From a plasmid: 64,000 nucleotides of DNA. The notes beneath the pieces were generated by a model, which was not told where the DNA came from, made no database searches, and saw only the letters and a list, made by a program, of their open reading frames with translations. Every line of letters starts with the position of its first letter. Within the stretch, counting starts at the first letter, position 1. Both the position numbers and the translations under genes were made by a program. Location of the stretch: NCBI RefSeq assembly GCF_055900595.2, contig NZ_JBVWEU010000002.1; one strand, written 5' to 3'. Positions 2,759 to 25,222 of the stretch are shown here, piece by piece.

Positions 2759-3191
2759 TACCATCAATACAGTGATATTGCCAGGCTCTTCCAGGGTTAT
2801 ACTGAATGCAATGATCCGAAAGGATGATGAATGGATTGATTCATACCACAAGTTTTCATTTTGACATCCTCCACGCCCTAAGGACGAGGGGTCCTGCTTC
2901 AACGGGCGGCATCCGTCATCCGCCAATACATTGAATAGCAGCAGACACCTGGTTAGGTGGAAAACAGCGCCTTATATCCCCGCTGAAGGACGGGGTTTTA
3001 CGGTGCACGGATAAAAGGAGCATGAATGATGGAGTATGTAGAAGTATCGGAGAAAATTTGATATTCTTCTTGATAAAATGAGATTTTCTGCACATATAAG
3101 CATACAGGAGATTCATAGTACAAAAATAAAAAATCATAATAATAAACTTAAATTGACATAACTATAATCAACTTTGAACAGGAATATATTA

Positions 3192-3832: not shown

Positions 3833-4198
3833 ATGATTGATGTCTTAGGACCGGAGAAACGCAGACGGCGTACTACACAGGAAAAGATCGCTATTGTTCA
3901 GCAGAGTTTTGAACCGGGAATGACGGTCTCCCTTGTAGCCCGGCAACACGGTGTGGCAGCCAGCCAGCTATTTCTCTGGCGCAAGCAATACCAGGAGGGA
4001 AGTCTTACTGCTGTGGCCGCAGGAGAGCAGGTCGTTCCTGCCTCTGAACTTGCTGCTGCCATGAAGCAGATTAAAGAACTCCAGCGCCTGCTCGGCAAAA
4101 AAACGATGGAAAATGAACTCCTTAAAGAAGCCGTTGAATATGGGCGTGCAAAAAAGTGGATAGCGCACGCGCCCTTATTGCCCGGGGATGGGGAGTAA
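3833..4198 (+). CDS. insC: IS2 OrfA (InsC)
   Basis: [53 protein letters not shown]... is recognised as IS2 InsC. Confidence 0.9.
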
Positions 4199-4820
4199 GC
4201 TTAGTCAGCCGTTGTCTCCGGGTGTCGCGTGCGCAGTTGCACGTCATTCTCAGACGAACCGATGACTGGAAAGATGGTCGCCGCAGCCGTCACTCCGATA
4301 ATACGGATGTGCTTCTCCGTATACACCATGTTATCGGAGAGCTGCCCACGTATGGTTATCGTCGGGTATGGGCGCTGCTTCGCAGACAGGCCGAACTTGA
4401 TGGTATGCCTGCGATCAATGCCAAACGTGTTTACCGGATCATGCGCCAGAATGCGCTGTTGCTTGAGCGAAAAACCGCTGTACCGCCATCGAAGCGGGCA
4501 CATACTGGCAAAGTGGCCGTGAAAGAAAGCAATCAACGATGGTGCTCTGACGGGTTCGAGTTCCGCTGTGATAACGGAGAAAAACTGCGAGTCACGTTCG
4601 CGCTGGACTGCTGTGACCGTGAGGCACTGTACTGGGCGGTCACTACGGGCGGCTTCGACAGTGAAACAGTACAGGACGTCATGCCAGGAGCGGTGGAACG
4701 CCGCTTCGGCAACGAGCTTCCGGCGTCTCCAGTAGAGTGGCTGACGGATAATGGTTCATGCTACCGGGCTAATGAAACACGGCAGTTTGCCCGGATGTTG
4801 GGGCTTGAACCGAAGAACAC
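4156..4820 (+). pseudogene. insD: IS2 OrfB (InsD), truncated after ...[11 protein letters not shown]
   Basis: The DDE transposase sequence is recognised up to the break. About the last 80 codons are missing. Confidence 0.85.
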
Positions 4821-5292
4821 AGAGTTGAGTGCGTCTATCCTGGAGAACGTTGCTGTTGTGCCTCAAAAAGCCGTTCTGGTGCAGGGAACTATTCGTGATA
4901 ATATTCTGTATGGAACCGATGACATTCTTCCCGATGATGAACTGTTTTGCATCCTGAATTCATTAGGGTTAATTAAAGAGGACTGCGGAGAACATTTCCT
5001 TGCTTTCCTAGACCGGGATATTAATCCTCTGGGTAGTGGTTTGAGTGGTGGAGAGATCCAGCGATTATGCATAGCCCGCGCCCTAGCCCGTAAGAAAAAG
5101 ATTATCGTACTTGATGAACCCACGGCCTCTATTGGCGAAGAACTCGCGATAAAGATCATTACCTATATCCGGCAGCATTGCCCTACCGTTATTATTACAA
5201 CTCATAATCCACGAATTCTGGAGCTCGCCGATCATTTTTTTGATGGTATGTCAAAGTCTTGCGTCATTGCTGGAGAAGGCAGAGACCAATAA
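4821..5292 (+). pseudogene. C-terminal half of an ABC-transporter ATP-binding domain, fused in frame to the truncated insD
   Basis: Q-loop ([16 protein letters not shown]), signature LSGGEIQR, Walker B IIVLDEPT and H-loop TTHN are present. Walker A and the membrane domain are absent. Confidence 0.75.
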
Positions 5293-5323
5293 ACCACACA
5301 CGTTAATTCATTTATATCTAATC

Positions 5324-5937
5324 GGGGTTGTACGCCGGAAACGCCGAAATTTCCGATACAGCGAATTTGTTGATTTTTGAAGCATGTTTGGAAGGTTTTG
5401 ACGTGTACGTTTATGGTGCAGTAAGTGAGAATTTATTCGTACCAGCCATATGATACGTTACGGGCAGTGATTTTTCGCGCTAGACAGCTATTTGGGGTTT
5501 GGGGAGTAGTGGAACTCAAAAGGCGGTTAAGCGGTTCAATTGAATGGTCAATAACAGGTAAATCAATCTGTTGAGATCAACAACGTCGTTTGTTCCGCAA
5601 ACGGCCAGGATGAGTAAAGCCAACTTGGCCCCCCCCAAAACAGATAGCCAAGAACGCAGATTCACGATGTAAATTGGCTGGTTGATTTTTGGCTATTTAA
5701 AATGACCGCTTAACGGCGGTTATTGTTCCACTGAGCCTCAAACCCCGAAACCTGGATTTTTCCGCGACCAGTAACGGCGTGGGTTGTCACATAAACGACC
5801 GATTGAGTGACTGTCACTGAAACAACGATTTCTGCATCAGATTTCGTCACATAACCCGTCACCTATTCAACGTCATGCAAATCTGTCAATTACTGGCTTT
5901 GGTTACGGAATTTTCTAGGTTTTCGGCTTAGAACCCC
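5324..5937. mobile_element. Outer miniature element bounded by Tn3-family-type 38-bp inverted repeats (614 bp, no ORF of 60 aa or more)
   Basis: 5324-5361 GGGGTTGTACGCCGGAAACGCCGAAATTTCCGATACAG versus the complement of 5900-5937 GGGGTTCTAAGCCGAAAACCTAGAAAATTCCGTAACCA (28/37 identical). The GGGG ends face outward. No 5-bp target duplication was found. Confidence 0.5.
5494..5746. mobile_element. Inner miniature element bounded by Tn3/gamma-delta-type 38-bp inverted repeats (253 bp, no ORF)
   Basis: 5494-5531 GGGGTTTGGGGAGTAGTGGAACTCAAAAGGCGGTTAAG versus the complement of 5709-5746 GGGGTTTGAGGCTCAGTGGAACAATAACCGCCGTTAAG. Both resemble the Tn3 IR GGGGTCTGACGCTCAGTGGAACGAAAACTCACGTTAAG as I recall it. 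Confidence 0.6.
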
Positions 5938-5969
5938 AAATAGTCTTAACGTGGTTTATTTTCCGAATT

Positions 5970-6248
5970 TCAAGCGCCCCCCTGGATGAGCGTGATGATT
6001 ACTGGCGGACCTTTGACGTTCCAGCAAATTCCCCTGTTCCACATAGGTTTCCAGATATGACCGGTTATTTTCACGTTCGGTGTACGTGTTACAGCTGCAT
6101 TATCAATATCATCAGGGATAAAATTGTAAGATCGTGGAAAATGTTTATTCATAGCCCGGATGATGGCTGTCTGTGCATCCTTTGTTCGGGCGCGGTGTTT
6201 CCATTCACGCCAGCCATCCACCTCAGAAATAATAACAGTAATCATCAA
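5970..6248 (-). CDS. Hypothetical protein, 92 aa, downstream of and co-oriented with the ProQ/FinO-domain gene
   Basis: ORF with a GAGG Shine-Dalgarno 5-6 nt upstream of ATGATG. No family is recognised. Confidence 0.55.
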   Translation of the reverse strand: MMITVIISEVDGWREWKHRARTKDAQTAIIRAMNKHFPRSYNFIPDDIDNAAVTRTPNVKITGHIWKPMWNRGICWNVKGPPVIITLIQGGA

Positions 6249-6302
6249 AACCTCGTGTCGTTACTCAATTTTGATTCCATAGCGGGACAGCATTTCACAT
6301 AA

Positions 6303-6968
6303 TTATGCCCCGTTATGAATGCAGGCGTCCTTCAAATTGCTGTCCGGTGTGACAGTTTTCGATGGTTGGTTGCAACGAGCATCTTCTGTCTCTTTCATCC
6401 TGGCGTTATAACGCTGCGTGTGTTTTTCAAGTTTTGCCTGCGCATACAGCGCTTCTTCCTCCGTTACAGTTCCATGAACTTTGCCATCCAGACCATAACG
6501 CGGAGTACCTGCGACTGATATACGCTGCAGATATTTGTAACCGCCAGTAATCATCCTTACAGCACAATTCCATTCTTTTACAGTTAGTCCACACTCAGGA
6601 CTGGCCGAAATAAAAGCCATGACATCCTTTGAGATGCCTATTTTAAATGCATGATATCCCCCCTCTTCAGCCCGTAACTGAGGGAATGTTTTTTTAACAC
6701 AGTCCAGACTGTGTCGGATAAACTCATGATTCCATCTATTGTTCTTCTTTTTTTTCTTCTTCTTACGTCCTGTTTTTTTCTGTTGTTCCGGGGAACCGGC
6801 CACTGTGGCTGGTATTTCAGGAGGTAATGAGTCGGTTTTAAATTCCATTACTGGCGCTGGTTTTATATCATCAGGAACTGCCTGTACAGCATCATCCTGA
6901 TGAGAAAGAATTCGTCTTTTTTTCTTAATAATAACAACAGGTGACGGTTTCTTTGTAACACTGCCCAT
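6303..6968 (-). CDS. ProQ/FinO-domain RNA-binding protein with a Lys-rich, low-complexity N-terminal region
   Basis: The C-terminal part FPQLR..YHAFKIGISKDVMAFI..GLTVKEWNCAVRMITGGYKYLQRISVAGTPRYGLDGKVHGTVTEEEALYAQAKLEK follows the ProQ/FinO N-terminal-domain pattern (FP..F..PLKIGI..DL....LSK..LR.AL..YT.S.RYL....G..R.DLDG...G.VT.E). The start at 6968 (GAGGTG SD) is preferred over the ATG at 7004. Confidence 0.75.
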   Translation of the reverse strand: MGSVTKKPSPVVIIKKKRRILSHQDDAVQAVPDDIKPAPVMEFKTDSLPPEIPATVAGSPEQQKKTGRKKKKKKKNNRWNHEFIRHSLDCVKKTFPQLRAEEGGYHAFKIGISKDVMAFISASPECGLTVKEWNCAVRMITGGYKYLQRISVAGTPRYGLDGKVHGTVTEEEALYAQAKLEKHTQRYNARMKETEDARCNQPSKTVTPDSNLKDACIHNGA

Positions 6969-7070
6969 ATACACACCTCTGCGTATCGTTAATATATAAT
7001 GCACGACATACAGATAGTATATATCTGAGTCGGTAAAGTCACCAACAGAAGAATAATAACATGTATTTCA

Positions 7071-7349
7071 TTACTGTTCGCGAATTATCACTCTGGATTC
7101 CTTCCTGGTGACATAAGTACAGTTATCAGGTACATCTTCCATAATAAAAGACATTGCCCCGATTTTAACATTACTTCCGATTTTCACATTTAACCCAATA
7201 ATACATGTATGGGCACCAATATCGACATTATCACCAATAACAATATAGTTTTCCCTACTGTCAGAAACCTTTTCACCAATGGTTGTATTCTGCCGTATAA
7301 TGACATTCTCACCGATATCAACATTACCATGAATGACGATTCCTGCATG
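7071..7349 (-). pseudogene. Hexapeptide-repeat (LbH) acetyltransferase, C-terminal fragment (serine-acetyltransferase/WcaB-like)
   Basis: Minus-strand translation from 7340 reads IVIHGNVDIGENVIIRQNTTIGEKVSDSRENYIVIGDNVDIGAHTCIIGLNVKIGSNVKIGAMSFIMEDVPDNCTYVTRKESRVIIREQ*. It abuts the IS1 IRR at 7350. The N-terminal half is at 22358-22678. Confidence 0.8.
7341..7349. repeat. Target-site duplication TCCTGCATG, left copy
   Basis: The identical 9-mer, in the same orientation, occurs at 22358-22366 immediately outside the other IS1 IRR. Confidence 0.85.
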
Positions 7350-7630
7350 GGTAATGACTCCAACTTATTGATAGTGTTTTATGTTCAGATAATGCCCGAT
7401 GACTTTGTCATGCAGCTCCACCGATTTTGAGAACGACAGCGACTTCCGTCCCAGCCGTGCCAGGTGCTGCCTCAGGTTCAGGTTATGCCGCTCAATTCGC
7501 TGCGTATATCGCTTGCTGATTACGTGCAGCTTTCCCTTCAGGCGGGATTCATACAGCGGCCAGCCATCCGTCATCCATATCACCACGTCAAAGGGTGACA
7601 GCAGGCTCATAAGACGCCCCAGCGTCGCCA
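7350..7630 (-). mobile_element. IS1 fragment (IRR plus the 3' part of insB, 281 bp)
   Basis: The sequence and encoded ...[88 protein letters not shown] match IS1 InsB. Similarity stops at 7630. Confidence 0.9.
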
Positions 7631-8486
<856 letters not shown>

Positions 8487-8741
8487 TAATTACACTGTGG
8501 GTTGACGCCGGAAGAATCAGAGAACAGATACCGTTCTTACTGTAAAACGTGGCTAATATTAATTGAGCACTGCAGTGTTCAGAGCACAAAGAAGAAAAAA
8601 GATGTGTGCGAATGCCTGTAATGTGTTAAAAGAATGTTCCGCGTTTCCGGTACGCTTTTCGTAACTAACAATGCAGGGTGACGTAACGCTGGTTGTGCCG
8701 GAAACGCGTCCCTCCCCCTATCTTTCCTGTTTGGATTTGCC

Positions 8742-8900
8742 CCTATATTTCTGGATTATCCGACAAAACCGGCGTGAAGTATTACTCTCGTCGCCCAGCA
8801 CCATAAGGATAACGCCCATAAAATCATGAAACTTTTCTTCCAGATTGGATACAATCAGGCCGAAACGGTGATGAATATTATCCAAATCTGATGGTTCGTA
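8742..8900 (-). mobile_element. IS2-group right-end remnant (terminal repeat plus the last codons of a transposase)
   Basis: TGGATTTGCCCCTATATTTC at 8742 equals the IS2 IRR complement for 20 nt. The minus strand reads ..YPYGAGRRE.YFTPVLSDNPEI*, resembling the IS2 InsD C-terminus (..LGYRSPREY..LSDNRCLEI*). Confidence 0.5.
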
Positions 8901-9095
8901 GCGTTTTCAGCCCCCAGATTCTGAGTTGCCTGTAGGGATGATTTCAATTCCCGATTTGTCTATCGCATAGAGAAAAAGAATTTCATTTCTGTTCACCAGA
9001 ACCCATGTAACCCACTCCAATTCGTTATTTATCTCACTGATTGCCCTTCATTTATCTCATTGATGCACCGAAAGGTAAAACTGCCATCCGGTGCA

Positions 9096-10025
9096 TCACG
9101 CTCGATGCATCAAATCCTGATAAATCCCCGTCAGTATTCCTTGTAAGCTAAATTCTCTTTTTATCCACTGAGTGACTTGACCGCTTGCCGAATGCCTGGT
9201 TGCCAACAGCATTCGTGAATCCTGACGTGGGTTGTGGATCTGCCGTGTCACCAGCAATGACTTTTCCATCGCTTCACGCACCATATAGTCTGGCAGAAAA
9301 CCGATTCCCTCCCCCAAGATCTGGCACTGAAGCTTAGTATTAAAGTCGGGAACCAGAATCGACTCTTGCCCGTGTAACAGCCAGCCGACTTTTTTGTTTA
9401 TAGTGTTTGCAGTGTCTTCCACCATGATGTTCGGGTACAGACGTAACTGACTCTCAGAAATGGGCTCAGGAATAAACGCCAGCGGATGAGCCGGAGAAAT
9501 CGCGAACAACCAACGAATCATGCCGATTTCAATGTAATCAATTCCACCACCGTCCAGTAACGTATCGGGCGCGCCAATGGCGATATCAGCCTGGTTATTA
9601 ATGAGTGAATCCCAGACGCCATTATACACCTCTGTAGTAATAGCTATCTGGCAGGTTGGAAAGTGTTCCCTGAGCACTTGCAGAAGCCGAGCTGTATGCT
9701 GAGGGGTATACAACAGTTGATTAATACAAATGCGCACCCGGGATTTAATTCCCTGAGCGATGGCATCAACTCTACGTATGATGGAGTGGTAATCGTTGAG
9801 CAGGTCAGTTGCTTTGCAAAAAAGGTAGTGCCCGGGCTCGGTCAGCTCAATGCTACGGGTAGTTCGGGTAAAAAGCACCACGTCAAGCCCCATTTCCATA
9901 CGCTTGATAGTGTAACTAATTGCCGATGTGGTTAAGCCCAGTTCCTTCGCCGCCTTGCTGAAACTTCTATAGCGGGCAGCCATAGTAAATGCCAGTAAGT
10001 TTTCTTCCGTAAATATTGAATTCAT
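9096..10025 (-). CDS. LysR-family transcriptional regulator (YahB/AllS-like), divergent from the ankyrin-to-carbamate-kinase operon
   Basis: MNSIFTEENLLAFTMAARYRSFSKAAKELGLTTSAISYTIKRMEMGLDVVLFTR is the HTH, followed by a LysR effector domain. The start at 10025 has a GAGGAAAG SD. The longer ORF to 10154 is rejected. Confidence 0.85.
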   Translation of the reverse strand: MNSIFTEENLLAFTMAARYRSFSKAAKELGLTTSAISYTIKRMEMGLDVVLFTRTTRSIELTEPGHYLFCKATDLLNDYHSIIRRVDAIAQGIKSRVRICINQLLYTPQHTARLLQVLREHFPTCQIAITTEVYNGVWDSLINNQADIAIGAPDTLLDGGGIDYIEIGMIRWLFAISPAHPLAFIPEPISESQLRLYPNIMVEDTANTINKKVGWLLHGQESILVPDFNTKLQCQILGEGIGFLPDYMVREAMEKSLLVTRQIHNPRQDSRMLLATRHSASGQVTQWIKREFSLQGILTGIYQDLMHRA

Positions 10026-10412
10026 CTTTCTTTCCTCTGGCGACAATACACATACACAACATGATGATTGTTGAATGTATTTGTAATTCTTATAACCGAC
10101 AATCAGTTTTGAAAAAACTAACACCGTATTTACATTTAATTTGAAGGAAATCACACATCTGAATTTTAATTACAGGCAGCTATCCGTGCTGCAGACCACC
10201 TTTATTTATATGACTGCGGATTAATGGCTAAAATATCCCCAGCTATAATAGAAATATTGCACTATATCACACTCTCTTATTATTGTTAATTTTGTTTCAA
10301 TAATTCATGGTCTAATGATGAGTAAATTTTAAATGGATGGTGCTCTATGCATTCTGTTGCTATTCTTGGCTTGTTATATTTGTAAAATCTTAAAAAGAGC
10401 AGGAGATCGATT

Positions 10413-11018
10413 ATGTCCAATAAAGAACTCATTACAGAATTTCTGCTGGCGGCAGAACAAGGTAATTCCGATGGATTAAAATCATGCCTTGATAAAAAGG
10501 TTGATATTAATGCGACTAACCGCGAGGGGCGTACTGCAATTATTATTGCCAGTCTGAATAAACATTATGACTGCGTTTCTTTATTGATTTCCGCAGGTGC
10601 TGATATTAATAAACAAGATCAAACTTGTTTTAATCCCTTCCTGATTGGCTGCCTGAATAATGATTTAACACTGTTGCGTACGGTATTACCGGCTAACCCC
10701 GACCTTAATTGCCTAACCCGTTTTGGCGGTGTTGGTATTACACCTGCCTGCGAAAAAGGCCATGTCGAGATTGTACGTGAATTGCTGATGCGTACTGATA
10801 TCAATGTCAACCATACTAATTTTGTTGGCTGGACGCCGCTCCTAGAGGCCATCGTGCTGAATGACGGCGGTGAAAAGCAGCAGGAGATCGTCAAACTGTT
10901 GCTTGAGCATGGCGCAAACCCGCACATGACGGATAAATACGGTAAAACCCCGCTGGAGCTGGCGCGAGAAAAAGGCTACCACAAAATTGCCGAGTTGCTG
11001 ATTTCGGCTGGAGCCTGA
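10413..11018 (+). CDS. Ankyrin-repeat protein (YahD-like), 201 aa
   Basis: Repeated G.TALI.A...GH...V.LLI.AGADIN and TPL..A motifs; GGAG SD. The length matches E. coli K-12 YahD as I recall it. Confidence 0.85.
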   Translation: MSNKELITEFLLAAEQGNSDGLKSCLDKKVDINATNREGRTAIIIASLNKHYDCVSLLISAGADINKQDQTCFNPFLIGCLNNDLTLLRTVLPANPDLNCLTRFGGVGITPACEKGHVEIVRELLMRTDINVNHTNFVGWTPLLEAIVLNDGGEKQQEIVKLLLEHGANPHMTDKYGKTPLELAREKGYHKIAELLISAGA

Positions 11019-11103
11019 CAACAGGAGCACGATTATCGCTATATTATCACGGCAATCTTTTCGGGCACTAACCGCAGACTGCGCGTTTCTCACTTTTCGG
11101 GGA

Positions 11104-11952
11104 ATGGGCCAGGTTGAACAGGTTTTTTCCCATGCGGTAAATCTGTTAATACCTGAACAGCAGCGACTGCTGACGTTACTGAGTGAGGATTGTGATAACG
11201 CACCTAACAGTTGTCGTTTAGCACTGACACATTATGAAGACCTTTTTCACCCCGGTGAACAGGTCAATTTTAGCGGGTCTGGAATAACTGTTGGAAATGA
11301 TAAATGGATAGAAATAACCGGTTGTCAGATGTGGCGAATACCACGGTGGACATCTGATTCAGCAAGCCTTGCCAAAGTCGGCTGGCAGCATTGGGAAGAG
11401 TTTATCCGCCAACAACTAAGAAGCAACGACACATTATTTCTGTACCAGGGTGACAATCCATTTTATCAGGAAATTTCTCGCCAATTACTCAACCGCCGAA
11501 AAAATTTGCTGAAGGCGTTGTGTACAGGAGAAAACATCACTGCGGCAGTCAACCAGTTAATTGGTCTTGGAATAGGGCTGACGCCATCATCGGATGATTA
11601 TTTAGTAGGTTTAAGCACTATTTTATTTATTCAAGGACATCCACTAAGGAAGTATAGATACGATTTCTTAGCAGCATTACAACTTGCAGGAAATAACATA
11701 ACGCTTCTCAGCAAAATAACGTTAGAGGAAGCATTTAATCAGCGTTATCGGGAAAGAGTCGGACGGCTACTGAACCAATTTATTACTGAGCCACAACCCA
11801 TTTCTACGCAATATGTTACTGACATAAAAAATATAGGCTCAAGTTCTGGATGCGACATGCTGTATGGCATGGCGGATGCCTGCGCCCTGAGCCACAGGTC
11901 CGGAGGTAATTATGTCAATCAGGATAGTTGTAAAAAAAAACACGTATTTTGA
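11104..11952 (+). CDS. DUF2877-family protein (YahE/YlbF-like)
   Basis: 282 aa with LIGLGIGLTPSSDDYLVGL and GSSSGCDMLYG motifs typical of DUF2877. It overlaps the next gene by 41 nt. Confidence 0.75.
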   Translation: MGQVEQVFSHAVNLLIPEQQRLLTLLSEDCDNAPNSCRLALTHYEDLFHPGEQVNFSGSGITVGNDKWIEITGCQMWRIPRWTSDSASLAKVGWQHWEEFIRQQLRSNDTLFLYQGDNPFYQEISRQLLNRRKNLLKALCTGENITAAVNQLIGLGIGLTPSSDDYLVGLSTILFIQGHPLRKYRYDFLAALQLAGNNITLLSKITLEEAFNQRYRERVGRLLNQFITEPQPISTQYVTDIKNIGSSSGCDMLYGMADACALSHRSGGNYVNQDSCKKKHVF

Positions 11953-13459
11953 TTCTGTTTCACTGATGTCTATCTCCACGCGCGCAAATAAGCTTGATGG
12001 AGTTGAGCAGGCATTTGTTGCTATGGCGACAGAGATGAATAAGGGGGTGCTGAAGAATCTCGGTCTGCTGACCCCTGAGCTGGAAGAGGCGAAAAGTGGC
12101 GATCTGATGATTGTCATTAAAGGTACCAGCGAGGAGGCGAACGAGCGGACGCTAATAGCGATTGATGAGCTGTTTGCGCATAAAGAACAGGGAGGCCAGC
12201 ACGAAGCACGCTATGCCACGATTGCCAGTGCGAAGAAGCATGCTCCAGAGAGTAATCTGGCGGTGATCTCTGTCAATGGCCTGTTTGCTGCTCGTGAAGC
12301 TCGTCAGGCACTACAAAATAACCTCAATGTTATGCTGTTTTCTGACAACGTCTCTCTTGAGGACGAGCTGGAACTCAAGCATCTGGCACATGAAAAAGGG
12401 TTGTTGATGATGGGGCCTGATTGTGGAACCGCCATCATTAACGGCGCAGCGTTGTGTTTTGGCAATGCAGTGCGTCGCGGCAACATCGGAATCATTGGTG
12501 CCTCCGGTACGGGTAGCCAGGAGCTGAGCGTACGCATTCACGAATTTGGCGGCGGGATTTCCCAGCTGATTGGGACAGGTGGACGCGATATGAGTGAAAA
12601 AATTGGCGGCCTGATGATGCTTGACGCGATTAGCATGCTGGAGGCCGATCCACAAACTGAGATCATTACGCTTATATCCAAACCTCCTGCACCAGCGGTA
12701 GCCCGTAAGGTGCTGGAACGTGCGCGCACCTGTCACAAGCCTGTGGTGGTGTGTTTCCTCGGACGTGAGTCCACCCCTGCGGATGAAGAAGGCCTACAGT
12801 TTGCCCGCGGTACTAAAGAGGCTGCCTTGAAAGCGGTACTGTTGACTGGTGTGAAAAAAGAGAGTCTGGATTTGCATCCGCTCAACTGGCAGCTGATTGA
12901 AGAGGTTCGCTCCCGTCTGACTCCACAACAAAAGTATATCCGTGGCCTGTTCTGTGGTGGCACGTTATGCGATGAAGCGATGTTTACTGCCATGGAAAAA
13001 CTCTCGGATGTGTATAGCAATATTCACCCGAATCCGGCGTTCCGCCTTACAGATCTCAACCGTAGCGTGGCGCATACCTTCCTCGATTTCGGCGATGATT
13101 ATTTTACCAACGGCAAACCACATCCGATGATCGATCCCACCAATCGCATTACCCGGCTCTTGCAGGAAGCACAGGATCCTGAAGTTGGCGTGATCGTGAT
13201 GGACTTCATTCTTGGATTTGGATCACATGAAGATCCGGTTGGAGTGATGCTGGATACAATTGTTGAAGCCAAAGAAATTGCTGCCGCAGACGGTCGCCCG
13301 CTTGAGATCCTCGGCTATGTGCTGGGAACCGACCTTGATACACCGTCGCTGAAAAAACAGTGTCAGATGTTGACCGATGCCGGGGTTATTTGGGCAAGCA
13401 GTAGCACCAACACCGGATTACTGGCACGTGAATTTATATTTAAAGGGGAGGAAGGCTGA
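11912..13459 (+). CDS. FdrA/YahF-like protein (succinyl-CoA-ligase-alpha / NDP-forming acyl-CoA-synthetase fold), 515 aa
   Basis: The N-terminus MSIRIVVKKNTYFDSVSLMSISTRANKLDGVEQAFVAMATEMNKGVLKNLGLLTPELE is near-identical to my recollection of K-12 YahF. CoA-ligase glycine loops IIGASGTGSQE and GTGGRD are present. Confidence 0.85.
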   Translation: MSIRIVVKKNTYFDSVSLMSISTRANKLDGVEQAFVAMATEMNKGVLKNLGLLTPELEEAKSGDLMIVIKGTSEEANERTLIAIDELFAHKEQGGQHEARYATIASAKKHAPESNLAVISVNGLFAAREARQALQNNLNVMLFSDNVSLEDELELKHLAHEKGLLMMGPDCGTAIINGAALCFGNAVRRGNIGIIGASGTGSQELSVRIHEFGGGISQLIGTGGRDMSEKIGGLMMLDAISMLEADPQTEIITLISKPPAPAVARKVLERARTCHKPVVVCFLGRESTPADEEGLQFARGTKEAALKAVLLTGVKKESLDLHPLNWQLIEEVRSRLTPQQKYIRGLFCGGTLCDEAMFTAMEKLSDVYSNIHPNPAFRLTDLNRSVAHTFLDFGDDYFTNGKPHPMIDPTNRITRLLQEAQDPEVGVIVMDFILGFGSHEDPVGVMLDTIVEAKEIAAADGRPLEILGYVLGTDLDTPSLKKQCQMLTDAGVIWASSSTNTGLLAREFIFKGEEG

Positions 13460-14877
13460 TGAGCCAGACACTGTTTAATCAGCCGCTGAACGTTATTAAT
13501 GTCGGTATCGAAATGTTCAGCGATGACATGAAAAAGCAGAATGTACCGGTAACCCAACTTGACTGGACACCGCCAGGCCAAGGAAACATACAAGTGGTAA
13601 CGGCACTGGACGACATTGCCGCTTCACCACTGGCAGACAAAATTGCAGCTGCTAATCAGCTGGCGCTGGAACGCATTATCCAGTCGCATCCTGTGCTAAT
13701 TGGCTATGATCAGGCGATCAACGTCGTGCCGGGTATGACCCGTAACACTATCCTTCACGCCGGGCCGCCAATCCACTGGGAAAAAATGTGCGGCGCAATG
13801 AAGGGCGCAGTAACCGGGGCTCTGGTATTTGAAGGACTGGCGAAAGATCTGGATGATGCCGCCGAACTAGCTGCTTCAGGTGAAATCATCTTCTCTCCGT
13901 GCCACGAACATGACTGTGTCGGCTCAATGGCGGGTGTCACGTCTGCATCGATGTTTATGCACATCGTCGAGAACAAAACCTATGGAAACCGCGCATATAC
14001 CAATATGAGCGAGCAGATGGCAAAGATCCTGCGTATGGGCGCTAACGACCAGAGCGTTATAGAGCGTCTTAACTGGATGCGAGATGTACTGGGACCTATG
14101 TTGCGCGATGCTATGAAGCTGGCGGGCGAAATCGATCTGCACTTGATGTTAGCGCAGGCGCTGCATATGGGCGATGAGTGCCATAACCGCAACAACGCCG
14201 GGACGGCGCTGCTGATTCAGACGCTGACGCCGTGGATTATTCAGACTGGCTACCCTGTTGAGCAGCAGCGTGAGGTGTTCGAGTTTGTCCTCAGTAGTGA
14301 TTACTTCTCAGGACCAACATGGATGGCAATGTGTAAAGCCGCAATGGACGCTGCGCACGGCATTGAATACAGCACCGTGGTGACAACGATGGCACGCAAT
14401 GGTGTTGAGTTCGGTCTTCGTATTAGCGGTTTGCCGGGCCAGTGGTTTACCGGTCCGGCGCAGCAGGTGATTGGGCCGATGTTTGCGGGCTATAAGCTAG
14501 AGGATTCCGGACGTGATATCGGTGATAGTGCAATTACCGAAACCTACGGCGTTGGCGGTTTCGCTATGGCGACGGCACCAGCTATTGTGTCACTGGTGGG
14601 CGGAACAGTTGAGGAAGCTATTGATTTCTCACGTAAAATGAGAGAAATCACTCTCGGAGAAAACCCCAACGTCACCATTCCCCTGCTTGGTTTTATGGGC
14701 GTACCGACCGCTATCGATATTACACGTGTAGGCAGTACAGGCATTCTGCCGGTAATTAACACAGCCATTGCGCACAAAGACGCAGGGATCGGCATGATCG
14801 GCGCAGGAATTGTTCACCCGCCGTTCACTTGTTTTGAAAAGGCGATCCTCAACTGGCGTGACCACTACTGCCAATAA
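13459..14877 (+). CDS. DUF1116-family protein (YahG/YlbE-like), 472 aa
   Basis: Its start overlaps the previous stop (TGATG). Size and position after the FdrA-like gene match yahG/ylbE. Confidence 0.8.
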   Translation: MSQTLFNQPLNVINVGIEMFSDDMKKQNVPVTQLDWTPPGQGNIQVVTALDDIAASPLADKIAAANQLALERIIQSHPVLIGYDQAINVVPGMTRNTILHAGPPIHWEKMCGAMKGAVTGALVFEGLAKDLDDAAELAASGEIIFSPCHEHDCVGSMAGVTSASMFMHIVENKTYGNRAYTNMSEQMAKILRMGANDQSVIERLNWMRDVLGPMLRDAMKLAGEIDLHLMLAQALHMGDECHNRNNAGTALLIQTLTPWIIQTGYPVEQQREVFEFVLSSDYFSGPTWMAMCKAAMDAAHGIEYSTVVTTMARNGVEFGLRISGLPGQWFTGPAQQVIGPMFAGYKLEDSGRDIGDSAITETYGVGGFAMATAPAIVSLVGGTVEEAIDFSRKMREITLGENPNVTIPLLGFMGVPTAIDITRVGSTGILPVINTAIAHKDAGIGMIGAGIVHPPFTCFEKAILNWRDHYCQ

Positions 14878-14989
14878 CAATAACCGGGGCTAACGCAGTT
14901 AGCCCCACAGTAGCGGAAAACGTTGTTTACCTTCAGGGCTGGGCGATCTCCATGATCGCAAACGATGCTTAACCTGTTAAGGAGATTCC

Positions 14990-16540
14990 ATGAACAGCAT
15001 AAAACTAGAATGGAAACGTGGTGACTGGGCGGCTTACTTTGGACTGATGACCAACAATCTGACTAACCTGCTGACAATGATGGGTCTGCTAATTTTTGTC
15101 GTCGGAATCCCTACTGAAATTGTCTATGGACGCATTGCGCCTGCCTTTGGTCTTGCAGTGCTGGCGGCCAGTGTCTGCTACTCCTGGTTTGGTCTACAGA
15201 TGGTGAAGAAAACCGGTCGTAGCGATGTAACGGCGCTGCCGTCTGGACCGAGCGCACCCTCAATCTTTACCGTGACATTCCTGGTGCTGATGCCGGTTTA
15301 TCAGCAAACCAAAGATGCCAACTTTGCTATTCAGATAGGATTGGTGTGGTGCTTTGTCGAAGCGTTGATCCTGGTCGGTGGCTCCTTCCTGGGTGAGACT
15401 ATCCGCAAGATGATCCCGCGTACAGTGCTGCTTTCTTGTCTGTCCGGACTGGGGTTATTACTGCTGGCAATGAACCCGATGCTGCAAGCGTTCGAAGCGC
15501 CGACAGTTTCTTTCATCGTCCTGTTATTGATCTTCATTAACTGGTTCGGTAAGAAGCCGATTTTTCCCCATATTCCTACCGGTTTGCTGTTGCTGATTGC
15601 TGGTACGTCCCTAGCGTGGATATCCGGTTTACAAAGCCCGGAAGACATTAAAGCGTCGATGTCTTCCTTCGGCTTCAACCCGCCGGAAATTCATGTAAGG
15701 AGCTTCCTGCAAGGTTTGCCGCACGCTCTGCCATATCTGGCTTCTGCAGTTCCTTTGGGCCTGGCTAACTACATTTTTGACCTCGAGAACATTGAAAGTG
15801 CGCACGCGGCTGGTGATGAATACAACACCCGTAAGGTCATGATGGCGAACGGCTTTGCCTCCATGCTCGGTTGCATGCTGGGTAATCCGTTCCCGGTAAC
15901 CGTATATGTTGGGCATGCAGGCTGGAAAGCTATGGGCGCTAGTATCTGCTATACCCTCGCATCAGGCATCACTATGTTCCTGGTGCCATTGTTTGGGTTG
16001 GGCGCGTTTATGCTCGCCATTATTCCCATGACTGCTATAGTGCCAATTCTGGTTTTTATCGGTGTGGTAACCGCCAATCAGGTGGTGCGAGAAACTCCTA
16101 AAGTCGAGGTTCCCGTCATTTTCATCTGTCTGTTCCCATGGGTCGCCAACTGGGCATTGACCATCGTTAACAGCGTGATGGGCGCAGCCGGAACATCCGC
16201 TGAGAAACTTGGTAGCGACCTGTTGCACAGCAAAGGCGTCTATTACGATGGACTGATGCATCTGGGAAGCGGTGCACCGCTGGCCAGCATGCTGTGGGGA
16301 TGCATTGCTATCTTTGCCATTATGAATAAGCCGCTGCGCGGGGCGATAGCTGCATCCTTTGGAGCACTGTTATCGCTGTTTGGCGTGATTCACTCCCCAG
16401 CGGTTGGCTTTGCGGAAGGCAGCTCGATTGTGTTTGTTGTGGCCTACCTGATGATGCTTGCTATGTTTGCCCTCAAGCATGTTATTGATAGCCGTGAAAC
16501 AGTGGCTGCGTCTGAGCAGGAAGAGACTAAAACGACCTGA
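14990..16540 (+). CDS. Polytopic permease, NCS2/AzgA-like (xanthine/uracil permease superfamily), 516 aa
   Basis: More than 12 hydrophobic segments, AGGAG SD, embedded between the DUF1116 and carbamate kinase genes. The family call rests on overall pattern only. Confidence 0.65.
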   Translation: MNSIKLEWKRGDWAAYFGLMTNNLTNLLTMMGLLIFVVGIPTEIVYGRIAPAFGLAVLAASVCYSWFGLQMVKKTGRSDVTALPSGPSAPSIFTVTFLVLMPVYQQTKDANFAIQIGLVWCFVEALILVGGSFLGETIRKMIPRTVLLSCLSGLGLLLLAMNPMLQAFEAPTVSFIVLLLIFINWFGKKPIFPHIPTGLLLLIAGTSLAWISGLQSPEDIKASMSSFGFNPPEIHVRSFLQGLPHALPYLASAVPLGLANYIFDLENIESAHAAGDEYNTRKVMMANGFASMLGCMLGNPFPVTVYVGHAGWKAMGASICYTLASGITMFLVPLFGLGAFMLAIIPMTAIVPILVFIGVVTANQVVRETPKVEVPVIFICLFPWVANWALTIVNSVMGAAGTSAEKLGSDLLHSKGVYYDGLMHLGSGAPLASMLWGCIAIFAIMNKPLRGAIAASFGALLSLFGVIHSPAVGFAEGSSIVFVVAYLMMLAMFALKHVIDSRETVAASEQEETKTT

Positions 16541-16566
16541 ATAGCCTGCAAACGGAAGATAATTCT

Positions 16567-17529
16567 ATGAAAGAACTTGTGGTCGTTGCCATTGGTGGCA
16601 ACAGCATTATCAAAGATAACGCCAGCCAGTCGATTGAGCATCAGGCGGAGGCGGTGAAGGCCGTCGCCGATACGGTTCTGGAAATGCTGGCTTCCGATTA
16701 CGACATTGTGCTGACCCACGGCAACGGGCCGCAGGTCGGTCTGGATTTACGCCGCGCGGAGATAGCCCACGAGCGCGAAGGGCTACCCTTAACGCCGCTG
16801 GCGAACTGTGTGGCGGATACGCAAGGCGGCATTGGCTATCTGATCCAGCAGGCGCTGAACAACCGGCTGGCGCCTCACGGCGAGAAAAAAGCCGTCACCG
16901 TGGTGACTCAGGTGGAAGTGGATAAAAACGATCCGGGGTTTGTCCATCCCACCAAGCCCATCGGTGCATTCTTTAGTGAAAACCAGCGTGATGAACTACA
17001 AAAGGCAAACCCTGACTGGCGTTTTGTTGAAGATGCCGGACGGGGCTATCGCCGCGTGGTCGCCTCGCCGGAACCGAAACGTATTGTCGAAGCACCTGCC
17101 ATTAAGACTCTGATCCAGCAAGGCTTTGTGGTGATTGGCGCGGGCGGCGGTGGCATTCCGGTGGTGCGTACTGACGCAGGGGATTACCAAAGCGTGGACG
17201 CGGTTATCGACAAAGATCTCTCTAGCGCGCTACTGGCTCGCGAAATTCACGCCGACATTCTGGTGATCACCACCGGCGTGGAAAAAGTGAGTATTCATTT
17301 TGGGAAACCCAACCAGCATGCACTGGATACAGTGGATGTCCTAACGATGGCCCGTTACATGCAGGAGGGTCACTTCCCGCCTGGGAGTATGTTACCGAAG
17401 ATTCTTGCCAGTCTGGAGTTCCTGGAACGTGGAGGTAAAAGAGTGATTATCACCACGCCTGAATGCCTGTCCGCGGCACTGCGTGGCGAAACAGGCACCC
17501 ATATTATCCACTCCCAAGAGGAGACGTAA
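16567..17529 (+). CDS. Carbamate kinase (YahI/YqeA/ArcC-like), 320 aa
   Basis: VVAIGGNS, THGNGPQVG, GYRRVVASPEP, GGGGIPV and DKDLSSALLA motifs are characteristic of carbamate kinases. Confidence 0.9.
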   Translation: MKELVVVAIGGNSIIKDNASQSIEHQAEAVKAVADTVLEMLASDYDIVLTHGNGPQVGLDLRRAEIAHEREGLPLTPLANCVADTQGGIGYLIQQALNNRLAPHGEKKAVTVVTQVEVDKNDPGFVHPTKPIGAFFSENQRDELQKANPDWRFVEDAGRGYRRVVASPEPKRIVEAPAIKTLIQQGFVVIGAGGGGIPVVRTDAGDYQSVDAVIDKDLSSALLAREIHADILVITTGVEKVSIHFGKPNQHALDTVDVLTMARYMQEGHFPPGSMLPKILASLEFLERGGKRVIITTPECLSAALRGETGTHIIHSQEET

Positions 17530-17699
17530 ATTAAGGAAAGCGACCGCCGCCGTGAATTTTTAATGTTCATTGCAGATTATCGTGGGCTGGAAATGATAAC
17601 GGTTGGGGAGTTATTGTTTAGTTGCTAAAACAGAACGATAACCAACCCCAACCGTTCTCAATTTCGAATACTATCTTTTCCATTTATCTCTGGATAGGC

Positions 17700-18315
17700 T
17701 TTGACGTCGTCCCTACTGAGTAAAATCCCCCTCATCATCCACCTAAAACCGATTGAAAACGGTCATTACTCTTGTGGCAAACAGGCTAAAGCCGTTCACG
17801 ATGCTTCACTTCGCACCTTATCGTAATGAACAATACTGGTATTTCCAGTTCAGTTACGCCTACCCGTCTACCGCATTCTTTGCCCTAACTACGGCATAGT
17901 TCGGGATTATATCAGCTGGCTAAAGCCTTATGCTCATCAGACCACATGACTCATTGAGCATGTTGAGGCGTTACTCAAAATCTTGCCGATTAAACATATT
18001 TCGTAATTTCTTACCCTGCACTAGCATATCATCAATACTATCGACAAACGTCAGTTGCAAATAGAGGTCACAGGGTCTGATTGATGTACTGCCAAGGCCG
18101 GGTCATGAAAGAGTTTGCCCTGTTCAAAGCTCATCGTTACGCACCGTCGTAGCCGATGCGGATACTCATCAATCCTCTGGATAGGTGAGGTGCGTAGTAG
18201 AGAAGCTCGGTCGTTTTTCGTTAATCTGAATCAGTACTGTCAACATATTCAAGTCGTTAATATGGATATGAATACCTCCTTTGACCTAGAGGTACAGATG
18301 CACTACCCCCCAAGC
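17700..18315 (+). pseudogene. ISL3-family transposase remnant A (multiple stops), cut off by an IS100 end
   Basis: Decayed frames show ..CPNYGIV..WLKPYAHQTT.., ..KEFALFKAHRYA.. and LWIGEVRSREA..FF..L....I..VNMDMNTSFDLEVQ.H.P, the ISL3 order of motifs. Confidence 0.5.
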
Positions 18316-18337
18316 TGTCAACGACGGATGAAAAGTG
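18316..18337 (+). repeat. Orphan IS100 terminal inverted repeat (22 bp)
   Basis: TGTCAACGACGGATGAAAAGTG is identical to the first 22 nt of the complete IS100 copy at 20039. Confidence 0.7.
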
Positions 18338-19630
18338 GCTCTTCCGCAACCTGGATGGAGATTTTCATGCCAGTGGACTCATGACCCTCTGCCTGAGTAG
18401 TTCAAATCCGGCTCGACCATACATCTGGCCTTTCAGCATTTTTAGCCAATTTACATGACTTTCGACACCCCCCATTATTCCAGCGACTGCTGATTGCCTC
18501 ACATATAGCCGCAGCATCAGCTGCCATCCTTGCAGCCACGCGCCGAAGTTACCACTTTCTCGTTGCTCTTTTAACCACTCCCTCCATGGGTCCAGAAGTC
18601 CTCACTCTGGAGGCCGGGTTGACATTTCAGGGAATGTTCCTGAACACACCCAGAGACTGTCTGTCACACGTGATAAGCCTGTAATACGGGATAAGCCTGT
18701 AATACGGGATATTTCCCCTGAACCCACATCCCTTGTTATGTAGTGCCATAACCTCTGTCCAACGCTGATGCCGTTTTTGGCGGGTTTGCTGTTTAAGGCG
18801 TTCCGGACGACGGAGCGATGCTACAGGCACAGACAGTACTGGCTTAGGTGATTTCTTTGGTGACAACCCACTGGCAACAAGACGTATCAGAGGCATCTGT
18901 CTGTACATCATTCGTTCAGGCGCATCGCCAATATTTTTTAGCCGGTGCCATCGAGCTGCTATCTGTCTGGCCTGAGGTGCACCTTCACGTGATGCTGTCG
19001 CATAGACTCCGCCACGGTCACATGAGACAACCTGTATTTCCGGATATTTTCTGAACCAGGTCGCCAGCGTACTCTGCTCGCAACCGGGAAGCAGGACGAG
19101 GGGACGGTGAGTATAAAGATTGACGATTAACGTACCGTAATGGTAGCCCCGATGCCACGCCCACTCATCAATACCGACATGAGGCGCGCCTGACTGTTTC
19201 GTCTCCGGGGTATTAATAACCCTGCGAAGAAGAGTATCAGCACTGCAACGGAGCCCCACTGCCGTTGCTGCCTGTTTCCCGGCCTCACCTCCGGCTATTA
19301 ATCCCAGTTGATGTTGTAAATTTTGTAACACCTGTGAAGAATGCTGGGAGTGAACCGGCGAAGGGGGCAAGCGACCCGGCAAAAATTTTACGTGAACAAG
19401 CCGGGTTACGGCAGTACCAGTGGCGGACGGAAAATACAAGCCATAGCGTCTGCCCTGAGCAGGGTAGATGCTGTATCCGGCGCCGACGATAACTATGAAC
19501 AGAGTCGCTACGCTTAAAGCATTCAGGACTTGTGCTGTTTTGCGTTTTCCGTGGAGATGGAGGGTTATACCGTCAGAGCTAATAATTTGTCGACTGCATC
19601 TCCATCCGCAAGGTAACTGTAGAAGTGTCT
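18338..19630 (-). mobile_element. ISL3-family element B (~1.29 kb) with a frameshifted transposase; it abuts the IS1 IRL
   Basis: Ends GGCTCTTCCGCAACCTGGATGGAGAT (18337-) and AGACACTTCT...GCGGATGGAGAT (complement, from 19630). The minus-strand frames carry CPECF..SVHSYRRR..HLP, GIDEWAW..HYGTLIVNL, CDRGG, ARWHRLKN and a C-terminal NWLKMLKGQMYGRAGFELLRQRV. Confidence 0.6.
18673..18708. repeat. Perfect tandem duplication of an 18-bp unit (ATAAGCCTGTAATACGGG x2) inside the ISL3-B transposase pseudogene
   Basis: Read directly from the sequence. It encodes the duplicated IPYYRL. Confidence 0.9.
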
Positions 19631-19685
19631 GGTGATGCTGCCAACTTACTGATTTAGTGTATGATGGTGTTTTTGAGGTGCTCCA

Positions 19686-21992
<2,307 letters not shown>

Positions 21993-22342
21993 CTAAATCG
22001 CGCCAGCGCTGGCTGTTTTACGCGTATGACAGTCTCCGGAAGACGGTTGTTGCGCACGTATTCGGTGAACGCACTATGGCGACGCTGGGGCGTCTTATGA
22101 GCCTGCTGTCACCCTTTGACGTGGTGATATGGATGACGGATGGCTGGCCGCTGTATGAATCCCGCCTGAAGGGAAAGCTGCACGTAATCAGCAAGCGATA
22201 TACGCAGCGAATTGAGCGGCATAACCTGAATCTGAGGCAGCACCTGGCACGGCTGGGACGGAAGTCGCTGTCGTTTTCAAAATCGGTGGAGCTGCATGAC
22301 AAAGTCATCGGGCATTATCTGAACATAAAACACTATCAATAA
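21993..22342 (+). pseudogene. insB: IS1 insB, 3' part separated from its 5' part by IS100
   Basis: Encodes [35 protein letters not shown]...NIKHYQ*. Confidence 0.85.
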
Positions 22343-22357
22343 GTTGGAGTCATTACC

Positions 22358-22366
22358 TCCTGCATG
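22358..22366. repeat. Target-site duplication TCCTGCATG, right copy
   Basis: Identical to 7341-7349. Confidence 0.85.
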
Positions 22367-25205: not shown

Positions 25206-25222
25206 ATAGCTATACTCCCCGC

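Follow-up and report, generated by a model that had tools for sequence, protein, structure and literature searches.

The window analysed here, a stretch of 64,000 nucleotides of plasmid DNA, encodes two proteins with a FinO domain, which raises the question of what the second one does and on which RNA it acts. The canonical finO gene (28264-28824, minus strand) is intact and its translation yields 186 aa. About 21.3 kb away lies the gene under study (6303-6968, minus strand), here referred to as the fopA-like gene, which codes for a product of 221 aa. A preliminary description of this DNA had correctly recognised the two genes at a distance of about 21 kb, but had stated that neither the function nor the client RNA of the second protein could be inferred. 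Both turned out to be accessible by homology with the FopA/PcnR clade and by synteny with the IncFIC(FII) replicon of the plasmid itself.

The fopA-like gene and its product

The open reading frame extends from an ATG at 6968 to a stop codon at 6303, with an AGAGG Shine-Dalgarno sequence 7 nt before the ATG. In the HMM check against the ProQ/FinO family (Pfam PF04352), the product scored 49.5 bits (E 4.9e-13), with aa 87-192 matching profile positions 7-108 of 109. This value is above the gathering threshold of 27 bits and confirms the C-terminal domain assigned previously. The N-terminal half is indeed rich in Pro and Lys and contains KKTGRKKKKKKKNNRW. The segment coding for poly-Lys (6748-6779, minus strand) holds an A8 run (6748-6755) and an A7 run (6773-6779), both of which are frameshift hot spots.

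In the AlphaFold2 model, aa 80-199 (6372-6731, minus strand) form a folded FinO/ProQ domain with pLDDT values of 93-97 and disordered flanks. The N-terminal region of aa 1-79 (6732-6968, minus strand) is predicted to be disordered, with block-mean pLDDT values of 43-68. Helices were modelled at residues 81-94, 112-122, 130-142, 144-150 and 170-199, and strands at 156-158 and 164-167. The predicted domain folds compactly, is mostly helical and contains a beta-hairpin, as in the ProQ/FinO superfamily. Two basic stretches, PVVIIKKKRR and KKTGRKKKKKKKNNRW, are found in the disordered N-terminus. KKKRR occupies aa 16-20 and KKTGRKKKKKKKNNR aa 64-78, and both align with basic stretches of YafB/FopA and PcnR. 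Tyr146 and Arg157 are invariant in a multiple alignment of the window, IncZ, S. diarizonae, YafB, PcnR and FinO sequences. Their counterparts in 5nb9, the N-terminal domain of ProQ, are found at its YL and TR positions. RNA binding has been assigned to these conserved residues of the concave face (Y70/R80 in ProQ, Y146/R157 in FopA; PMC7491321).

Comparison of the product with the characterised FopA of pCol1B9 resulted in 34% identity over 199 aa (E 3e-35, full length). The values obtained for FinO of the plasmid studied here were 33% over 69 aa (E 2e-6, pairwise BLASTP), and the comparison with ProQ 5nb9 also gave an E value of 2e-6. Identities in the multiple alignment were 40% to YafB of IncI-gamma/K1 plasmids, 31-32% to PcnR of IncI2 plasmids and 25% to the plasmid's own FinO. 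Scores against the NCBIfam models for FinO (PRK13754, 34.9 bits) and for the ProQ equivalog (PRK04950, 37.2 bits) are below the respective cutoffs of 136 and 127 bits. The N-terminal region lines up with FopA-clade sequences and not with FinO; a PV(I/V)xxKKxR motif (PVIVVKKRR in PcnR) and a second basic stretch, the latter also described for FopA (PMC7491321), are common to the window protein, FopA, PcnR and other clade members. Judged by its sequence, the product is a FopA/PcnR-type FinO-domain protein, an uncharacterised member of this known clade, and not a duplicate of FinO. Since it is just 34-40% identical to FopA/YafB, it represents a separate lineage (IncK2/Z-IncFIC type). Literature searches yielded no described FinO-domain gene for ColV, IncK or IncZ plasmids.

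FopA (YafB) of the Salmonella plasmid pCol1B9 (IncI1-type) has the same disordered N-terminus with two basic stretches and a FinO domain with Tyr and Arg (Gerovac et al. 2020, PMC7491321). Both genes are located a few kb downstream of a rep gene controlled by an antisense RNA (in the window after removal of an IS1 element, see below), and this RNA has the same long hairpin, CGCCAA loop and GGGG-plus-U-rich tail. The linked replicons differ: the one in the window is of the IncFII type (copB, CopA, tap), whereas that of FopA features RNAI plus a repZ pseudoknot. The upstream genes differ as well, with phd/relE and an acetyltransferase gene here and yacAB, an exonuclease gene and small hypothetical ORFs (yafA region) in the case of FopA. 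In addition, the window gene is displaced by the 15-kb IS1 composite element and shares its plasmid with FinO. PcnR of IncI2 mcr-1 plasmids is likewise a FinO-domain protein encoded downstream of repA. It represses RepA synthesis and copy number, and needs no antisense RNA for binding to a stem-loop of the repR leader mRNA (PMC8053102). FinO belongs to the same domain family, is also plasmid-borne and, as predicted for the fopA-like protein, acts on a cis-antisense RNA with a terminator hairpin, but its gene is linked to tra instead of rep and its N-terminal region is different. Chromosomal ProQ has the FinO-type N-terminal domain with the aligned Tyr and Arg in common with the plasmid-borne fopA-like protein. 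The latter is devoid of the linker and of the Tudor-like C-terminal domain of ProQ, as is FopA, and a narrow target range is expected for it.

Original gene order of the replication module

The replicon is encoded by repA (24281-25150, minus strand), an IncFII-family initiator gene. The RepA protein is 88% identical to RepA of IncK2/Z plasmids and 94-95% identical to RepA of the IncFIC/FII plasmids L022 and L023. This is the cognate replicon of the fopA-like gene. The antisense RNA CopA, the proposed client, maps to 25223-25313 on the plus strand (Rfam RF00042, 97.9 bits, cutoff 60). The copB/repA2 replication regulatory protein gene (25451-25699, minus strand) was assigned to an 82-aa ORF at the position annotated as 'replication regulatory protein RepA' in L022 and L010. 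A toxin-antitoxin pair on the minus strand (22782-23317) comprises phd/yefM (23066-23317) and relE/parE (22782-23069), which are homologous to annotated genes in L006, L011 and L022. Sok was detected at 26120-26278 (Rfam, 94.5 bits), so that both CopA and a sok-type system, proposed earlier as further antisense systems, are present in the window.

An IS1-bounded composite element of 15,008 bp (7350-22357) lies between the replicon and the fopA-like gene. Its inverted IS1 ends are flanked by an identical 9-bp target duplication, TCCTGCATG, at 7341-7349 and 22358-22366. The element splits a serine-acetyltransferase-like (LbH) gene on the minus strand. Its 3' fragment (7071-7349), which matches positions 2784-3062 of the IncK2/Z plasmid L006, is directly upstream of the fopA-like gene, while the 5' fragment is found at 22358-22678, based on blastn against L006 and on the rejoined ORF. 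Joining 7071-7349 to 22367-22678, with the element excised, restores an acetyltransferase ORF of 196 aa. In the blastn comparison, L006 40-2792 corresponds to window positions 25114-22358 and L006 2784-4208 to 7349-5938; the 9-bp overlap of the two matches is the direct repeat TCCTGCATG. The junction is uninterrupted, with contiguous flanks, in 61 other plasmids, one of which is the IncFIA/FIC plasmid pSTEC506 with a CopA-tap-repA control region, and the module as such is uninterrupted in IncK2/Z and other IncF plasmids.

These results show that the original order was copB - CopA - tap - repA - ori - phd/relE - acetyltransferase - fopA-like - orf92. Through insertion of the IS1 element into the acetyltransferase gene, the distance between the repA start and the downstream fopA-like gene grew from about 3 kb to about 18 kb, and it is this 15-kb separation from the replicon that made the gene look like an orphan. 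The gene is a component of the IncFIC(FII) replication module of this plasmid and is neither an orphan nor a stray finO paralogue. Import of the gene as an orphan fragment from an IncK2/Z plasmid was considered and rejected, given the other half of the module at 22358-25114, including the 5' half of the acetyltransferase gene, and the 9-bp IS1 target duplication. The import is also contradicted by the poly-Lys segment, which in the ColV plasmid has the three-AAG form of other IncF copies and not that of IncK2/Z.

Transcription into the fopA-like gene from upstream may have been cut by the insertion. No sigma-70-like promoter scoring at least 9/12 was found in the 102-bp intergenic region upstream of the gene, and the total number of promoter-like sites was not above the shuffled expectation. 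At a relaxed Rfam threshold, the window segment 5000-8000 contained no credible RNA adjoining the gene; a sub-threshold isrC match in this segment falls within IS1.

Proposed role and alternative explanations

In six replicon types, a rep gene under antisense control is followed by a FopA-clade gene 0.8-4.2 kb downstream. The linkage was observed in IncI-gamma/K1 (including pCol1B9), IncI2 and IncK2/Z plasmids, and also in S. diarizonae IncFII and K. pneumoniae IncFII(K) plasmids, the latter two with Rfam CopA matches. In every lineage examined, FopA-type genes are linked to rep and not to tra. On these grounds, the fopA-like protein would most likely act as a repressor of copy number, via CopA or the repA leader. 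Among the candidate clients named in the preliminary description, CopA/repA is the one favoured by replicon synteny and by the likeness of hairpin and tail. The CopA SLII hairpin with its tail and Inc/RNAI have in common a GGCCCC stem base, a CGCCAA loop and a GGGG-plus-U-rich 3' end, with a mean column identity of 78%. FopA binds and stabilises Inc and accelerates Inc-repZ pairing 7-fold (PMC9977716), and deletion of pcnR increases the copy number of IncI2 about 10-fold (PMC8053102). In the review PMC9977716, which cites Gerovac 2020, FopA of pCol1B9 is stated not to bind transcripts of pSLT, an IncF plasmid, and CopA-type RNAs are therefore not automatically FopA clients.

With the homologues FopA and PcnR taken as a guide, the CopA terminator hairpin would be gripped at its base, together with the U-rich 3' tail, by the folded FinO domain (aa 80-199, with Tyr146 and Arg157), while the disordered basic N-terminus would help RNA pairing. 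CopA would be stabilised and its pairing with the repA-mRNA leader sped up. Alternatively, the protein may bind a stem-loop of the leader directly, as PcnR does. Either mode would lead to less tap/repA translation and a low copy number. On balance, we lean slightly towards the view that the protein is a FopA/PcnR-type RNA chaperone of the IncFIC(FII) replication module, which holds copy number low via CopA or the repA leader, with orf92 being independent of it. A wider proposal, namely that a single, nearly unchanged FopA-type protein serves two control cassettes, RNAI plus a repZ-type pseudoknot in IncK2/Z and copB/CopA/tap in IncFIC ColV plasmids, is put forward tentatively and seems doubtful at present. 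Such a protein would recognise the common hairpin and U-tail and not one specific RNA.

The distribution of the gene bears on whether it is functional at all. The product is 100% identical to the copy of pAPEC-O2-ColV. A tblastn search gave a match in 3,206 of 72,556 plasmid records; the matches listed are mostly I-complex, IncI2 or Klebsiella plasmids, and most E. coli IncF plasmids, with their CopA-type control, carry no FopA-like gene. Poultry-associated E. coli records among the matches include both ColV-type and IncK2/Z-type plasmids. Less likely than a working gene is a relic that has fallen silent or is decaying, still intact in a young ColV lineage but uncoupled by IS1 or not needed by a CopA-type replicon; we consider this rather unlikely. 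All three uninterrupted IncF plasmids examined (L022, L023, L025) carry a frameshifted or IS91-truncated copy, with 2 nt lost at the A7 run in L022 and 1 nt lost within the A8 run in L025; the gene thus looks dispensable beside a CopA-type replicon. Destruction of the upstream acetyltransferase gene, the private deletion in orf92 described below and the lack of a convincing promoter in the upstream intergenic region point in the same direction. As ColV copies are 99-100% identical, their intactness may reflect just recent common descent. Among the ColV, IncZ and IncK2 copies, dN/dS was uninformative with just 2-7 substitutions, and purifying selection cannot be gauged at a divergence of at most 7 substitutions. 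Against decay, the window copy has a full-length frame with a good Shine-Dalgarno sequence, which has stayed open despite slippage-prone A7/A8 runs. The frame is full length in more than 100 plasmid records at a protein identity of at least 99%, and about 130 complete E. coli genomes hold the 1.4-kb segment.

Action mainly in trans, on RNAI/Inc of co-resident IncK/Z/I1 plasmids or on structured chromosomal transcripts, appears distinctly less probable than decay. The protein of IncK2/Z plasmids with RNAI/PK-repZ control is nearly identical, differing over the first 200 residues by 1-4 substitutions and one Lys codon, and the ColV copy could therefore bind RNAI/Inc of a co-resident plasmid. FinO of pSLT regulates RepX of an IncQ plasmid in the same cell (PMC8136791), and some chromosomal RNAs are bound by FopA (PMC7491321, PMC9977716). 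However, no I-complex RNAI or PK-repZ element was found by Rfam within the window or typed in the ColV plasmids examined, and synteny favours the plasmid's own replicon. Very little speaks for a back-up or modulator of FinO that acts on FinP/traJ or other antisense RNAs of the tra region and tunes conjugation. Both proteins have a FinO domain, the window contains AS-traI, AS-traG and AS-pc02 (Rfam), and deletion of pcnR raised IncI2 transfer about 8-fold, but this deletion was not complemented by finO (PMC8053102). The target sets of FinO and FopA in Salmonella do not overlap (PMC8136791, PMC9977716), and the limited similarity to FinO, the FopA-like N-terminus and the linkage to rep given above also argue against such a role.

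The reading that we regard as hardly credible is a two-component system of the FinO-domain protein and the product of orf92 (5970-6245, minus strand). The earlier report of a co-oriented 92-aa ORF without a recognisable family was accurate in orientation and in the lack of a match (Pfam, NCBIfam, PHROG, PADLOC; no recognisable fold). Its length is probably 91 instead of 92 aa, since ATG at 6245, with GAGG 5 nt upstream, is a likelier start than TTG at 6248. Moreover, orf92 is a deletion variant of a family of proteins of normally 96 aa from enterobacterial plasmids and carries a 5-aa deletion, private to the window copy, in which conserved residues were lost. A weak AcrIE2-like signal was noted upon comparison with this anti-CRISPR protein. 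A partnership would fit the gap of 54-57 nt and the adjacency of the two genes in ColV, IncZ and some I-complex plasmids. In contrast, the IncK2 plasmid pDV10 carries the same FopA-like gene without orf96, and other IncK2 records match just to the same point. No FinO-domain gene was found within 5-6 kb of orf92 homologues (60-79% identity) at 11 plasmid or chromosomal loci (tblastn, E<=1), and two further orf96 loci had no FinO/ProQ Pfam match nearby. Homologues elsewhere follow cysS or sit beside a phage-integrase-family gene, and scans of genome contigs for orf96 relatives found none. The genes of FopA, PcnR and the Klebsiella homologue have differing downstream genes. The suggestion of a partner protein was rejected on these phyletic and neighbourhood grounds, and orf92 is best regarded as an independent small accessory gene that accompanies the fopA-like gene in only some lineages.

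Implications for ColV plasmids and FinO-domain proteins

For annotation, the locus illustrates that insertion of an IS1 composite element can make a gene of a replicon module look like an orphan. ColV-type IncF plasmids rank among the major virulence plasmids of extra-intestinal E. coli in birds and humans, and the setting of their copy number affects virulence-gene dosage and fitness cost. If the fopA-like protein tunes IncFIC(FII) via CopA, the textbook view of IncFII control by CopA/CopB would gain a protein layer. Under the wider proposal of a protein serving both cassettes, FinO would be in charge of transfer and the FopA-like protein of copy number, two FinO-domain chaperones with distinct tasks on a single replicon of the ColV virulence plasmid; the FopA-like protein could also act in trans on the copy number of IncK2/Z/I1 resistance plasmids in the same cell. 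Tuning via CopA would further make FinO and a FopA-like protein on one plasmid a natural system that must discriminate FinP from CopA, directly relevant to the still open matter of RNA selection by FinO domains.

A FopA/PcnR-type protein on a plasmid that also carries finO

The fopA-like gene (221 aa, minus strand) extends from an ATG at 6968, located 7 nt after an AGAGG Shine-Dalgarno sequence, to a stop at 6303. Its product scores 49.5 bits against the Pfam ProQ/FinO family (PF04352, gathering cutoff 27) at residues 87–192, which bears out the RNA-binding domain placed in the C-terminal half by the preliminary description. Scores with the NCBIfam models for ProQ proper (37.2, cutoff 127) and FinO proper (34.9, cutoff 136) are far below the thresholds. 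In the AlphaFold2 model, residues 80–199 are predicted with a pLDDT of 93–97, and residues 1–79 and 200–221 are disordered. Canonical finO is intact on the same plasmid (186 aa, 28264–28824), and Rfam located the two other antisense systems, CopA (25223–25313) and sok (26120–26278). With ORFs, domain, finO, CopA and sok all confirmed, the initial account of these features is correct. Rfam additionally yielded three antisense RNAs of F-like plasmids, AS-pc02 (27834–28019), AS-traI (31989–32065) and AS-traG (40628–40713); FinP and traJ lie beyond the end of the window.

The window belongs to a ColV-type IncF plasmid: a 1.7-kb region shares 99.1% identity with pAPEC-O2-ColV and with many relatives, and the pAPEC-O2-ColV copy of the protein is 100% identical. 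A neighbouring 378-aa ORF (4156–5292) is chimeric, joining an IS-transposase-like N-terminal part to the C-terminal ATPase half of an ABC exporter, and is probably a recombination scar; pAPEC-O2-ColV annotates its counterpart as an 'ATP-binding cassette domain' fragment.

An origin as a FinO duplicate was rejected, as BLASTP against the FinO of this plasmid gave only 33% identity over 69 aa (E 2e-6). Comparison with the characterised FopA of Salmonella pCol1B9 yielded 34% over 199 aa, approximately full length (E 3e-35). In multiple alignments, identities were 45–46% to a homologue linked to an IncFII replicon in S. diarizonae, 40% to YafB of IncI-gamma/K1, 31–32% to PcnR of IncI2 and 31% to an IncFII(K)-linked homologue of K. 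pneumoniae. All share the PVxxxKKxR motif at the N-terminus, another basic stretch and Tyr146/Arg157 of the FinO domain. FopA was defined by the N-terminal motif, second basic stretch and FinO-domain architecture (Gerovac et al., PMC7491321), and the protein has this defining architecture. HMMER, run exhaustively against 1.84 billion cluster representatives, detected only 127 clusters at E ≤ 0.001 (30 at E ≤ 1e-10), and thus a small set of relatives. FopA and PcnR are already published, with homologues in Escherichia, Shigella and Klebsiella noted in 2020; our literature searches found no paper on the IncK2/Z-IncFIC lineage of the gene or its presence on ColV plasmids. We conclude that the protein is a new, uncharacterised member of the FopA/PcnR kind.

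Original gene order and replicon linkage

IncK2/Z plasmids of the I-complex carry the same gene (95–99% protein identity over the first ~200 residues) in the order repA, phd/relE, serine acetyltransferase, ProQ/FinO gene and sometimes orf96, the 96-aa full-length form of the ORF discussed below. The acetyltransferase gene of the window seemed truncated by IS1, as in a stray import of a gene fragment. This was disproved by blastn of an IncZ locus (L006) against the whole window: 25114–22358 corresponds to L006 40–2792 (90.6%) and 7349–5938 to L006 2784–4208 (97.3%), with a 9-bp overlap between both L006 matches. The 9-mer TCCTGCATG is found at 7341–7349 and 22358–22366, directly flanking inverted IS1 termini, and a 196-aa acetyltransferase ORF is regained after removal of 7350–22357 and one repeat copy. 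Therefore, a 15,008-bp IS1-bounded composite element (7350–22357) was inserted into the backbone inside the serine-acetyltransferase-like gene, with a 9-bp target duplication. Its cargo is a cluster of metabolic genes (LysR, ankyrin-repeat, DUF2877, fdrA and DUF1116) together with an istA/istB pair of IS21-like type (20105–21906).

Judged from these alignments, the order before insertion was copB (25451–25699), CopA, tap, repA (24281–25150), phd/relE, acetyltransferase, fopA-like gene and orf92. The junction is uninterrupted in 61 plasmid records, among them pSTEC506 and other IncF plasmids under CopA/tap control. The fopA-like gene is no orphan and belongs, by its synteny, to the plasmid's own replicon module. 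Its poly-Lys segment contains three AAG codons in ColV and other IncF copies versus two in IncK2/Z, which fits a vertical membership in the IncF module.

In six replicon types, FopA-clade genes are located 0.8–4.2 kb downstream of a rep gene under antisense control: IncI-gamma/K1 (including pCol1B9), IncI2, IncK2/Z, an S. diarizonae IncFII plasmid, a K. pneumoniae IncFII(K)/FIB plasmid and, in its pre-insertion order, the IncFIC(FII) replicon of the window. Replicon linkage is a property of the clade. The control RNA is CopA in the IncFII cases and PK-repZ/RNAI in the I-complex cases. The K. pneumoniae example (NZ_CP070560.1, locus positions 4800–5958; 31% identity) is on a KPC plasmid, 1.2 kb downstream of a CopA-tap-repA replicon, with its 3' end overlapped by a DUF2913 gene; literature searches found no paper describing this protein.

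Comparison of window 22358–25700 with the IncK2/Z loci L006/L009 (NZ_CP075654.1) revealed that the IncFIC(FII) and IncK2/Z replicons have a module in common, made up of RepA body, ori, phd/relE, acetyltransferase and fopA-like gene, at 90–99% nucleotide identity. Upstream of repA nt 40, the control cassettes are alternatives, copB-CopA-tap in IncFIC and RNAI/PK-repZ in IncK2/Z; here, copy-control regions have clearly been exchanged as modules.

The downstream ORF

The co-oriented orf92 (91–92 aa, 5970–6245/6248, minus strand) begins 54–57 nt after the fopA-like gene and matches nothing in Pfam, NCBIfam, PHROG or PADLOC, in agreement with its earlier description as lacking a recognisable family. 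Its relatives form a tight family, usually of 96 aa, with identities of 65–98% and an invariant motif of the GHIW(K)P(M)W type; named members are restricted to Enterobacteriaceae (Escherichia, Salmonella, Citrobacter, Klebsiella, Enterobacter, Kluyvera, Kosakonia). A private 15-bp in-frame deletion at 6100–6105, flanked by TGCA microhomology, removed APVLF, including the near-invariant L53 and F54, and is absent from every plasmid record among the matches listed.

The suggestion that this protein could be a partner did not hold. The orf96 family occurs in two other settings (L017:5001-5291, L027/L028:5001-5291, L007, L008, L012-L016). On MPF_I plasmids of Salmonella and Citrobacter it directly follows a plasmid-borne gene for cysteine-tRNA ligase (cysS), whereas in Enterobacter and Klebsiella it converges with a gene of the phage-integrase family (259 aa). 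It is unusual for plasmids to carry aminoacyl-tRNA synthetase genes (cysS, glnS). A FinO-domain gene was found near none of the homologues at 11 loci (tblastn, E ≤ 1), and two further loci gave no FinO/ProQ Pfam hit. The IncK2 plasmid pDV10 lacks orf96, and other IncK2 records match only up to the same point. In these comparisons, orf92 is not a conserved partner of the fopA-like gene.

Candidate client and possible decay

The Inc antisense RNA is bound and stabilised by FopA, which speeds its pairing with repZ 7-fold (PMC9977716, PMC7491321). PcnR represses RepA and binds to a stem-loop of the leader, and copy number rises ~10-fold when it is deleted (PMC8053102). FinO domains recognise a hairpin base with a 3' tail (PMC9674577). 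Stem-loop II of the window CopA shares with IncZ RNAI and pCol1B9 Inc a GGCCCC stem base, a ~19-bp stem, a CGCCAA loop and a GGGG-plus-U-rich 3' end. Because of these roles, this likeness and this mode of recognition, we infer that the protein may bind CopA or the repA leader, which would lower RepA translation and copy number.

Counting against a CopA mechanism, pCol1B9 FopA reportedly binds no transcripts of pSLT (IncF) (PMC9977716). The gene is also dead in all three uninterrupted IncF plasmids examined: a frameshift results from the loss of 2 nt at the A7 run in pSTEC506 (L022:4330-4440) and of 1 nt in the A8 run in pO145-13516 (L025:4330-4440), and the third copy (L023) is truncated at residue 182, adjoining IS91. 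The A8 (6748–6755) and A7 (6773–6779) runs, which code for poly-Lys, are the exact sites of these frameshifts, and the tract acts as a hot spot for slippage. No convincing promoter was found in the intergenic region upstream, and the copies have diverged too little to test for selection. Appreciable weight is therefore given to the gene being a decaying relic, although the frame is open in > 100 ColV records and, of 5,426 complete E. coli genomes, 130 contain the 1.4-kb segment.

The novelty of this FopA/PcnR-type gene is modest and lies in its tie to a CopA-type replicon, its presence on the same plasmid as FinO and the pairing of one protein with two different control cassettes.
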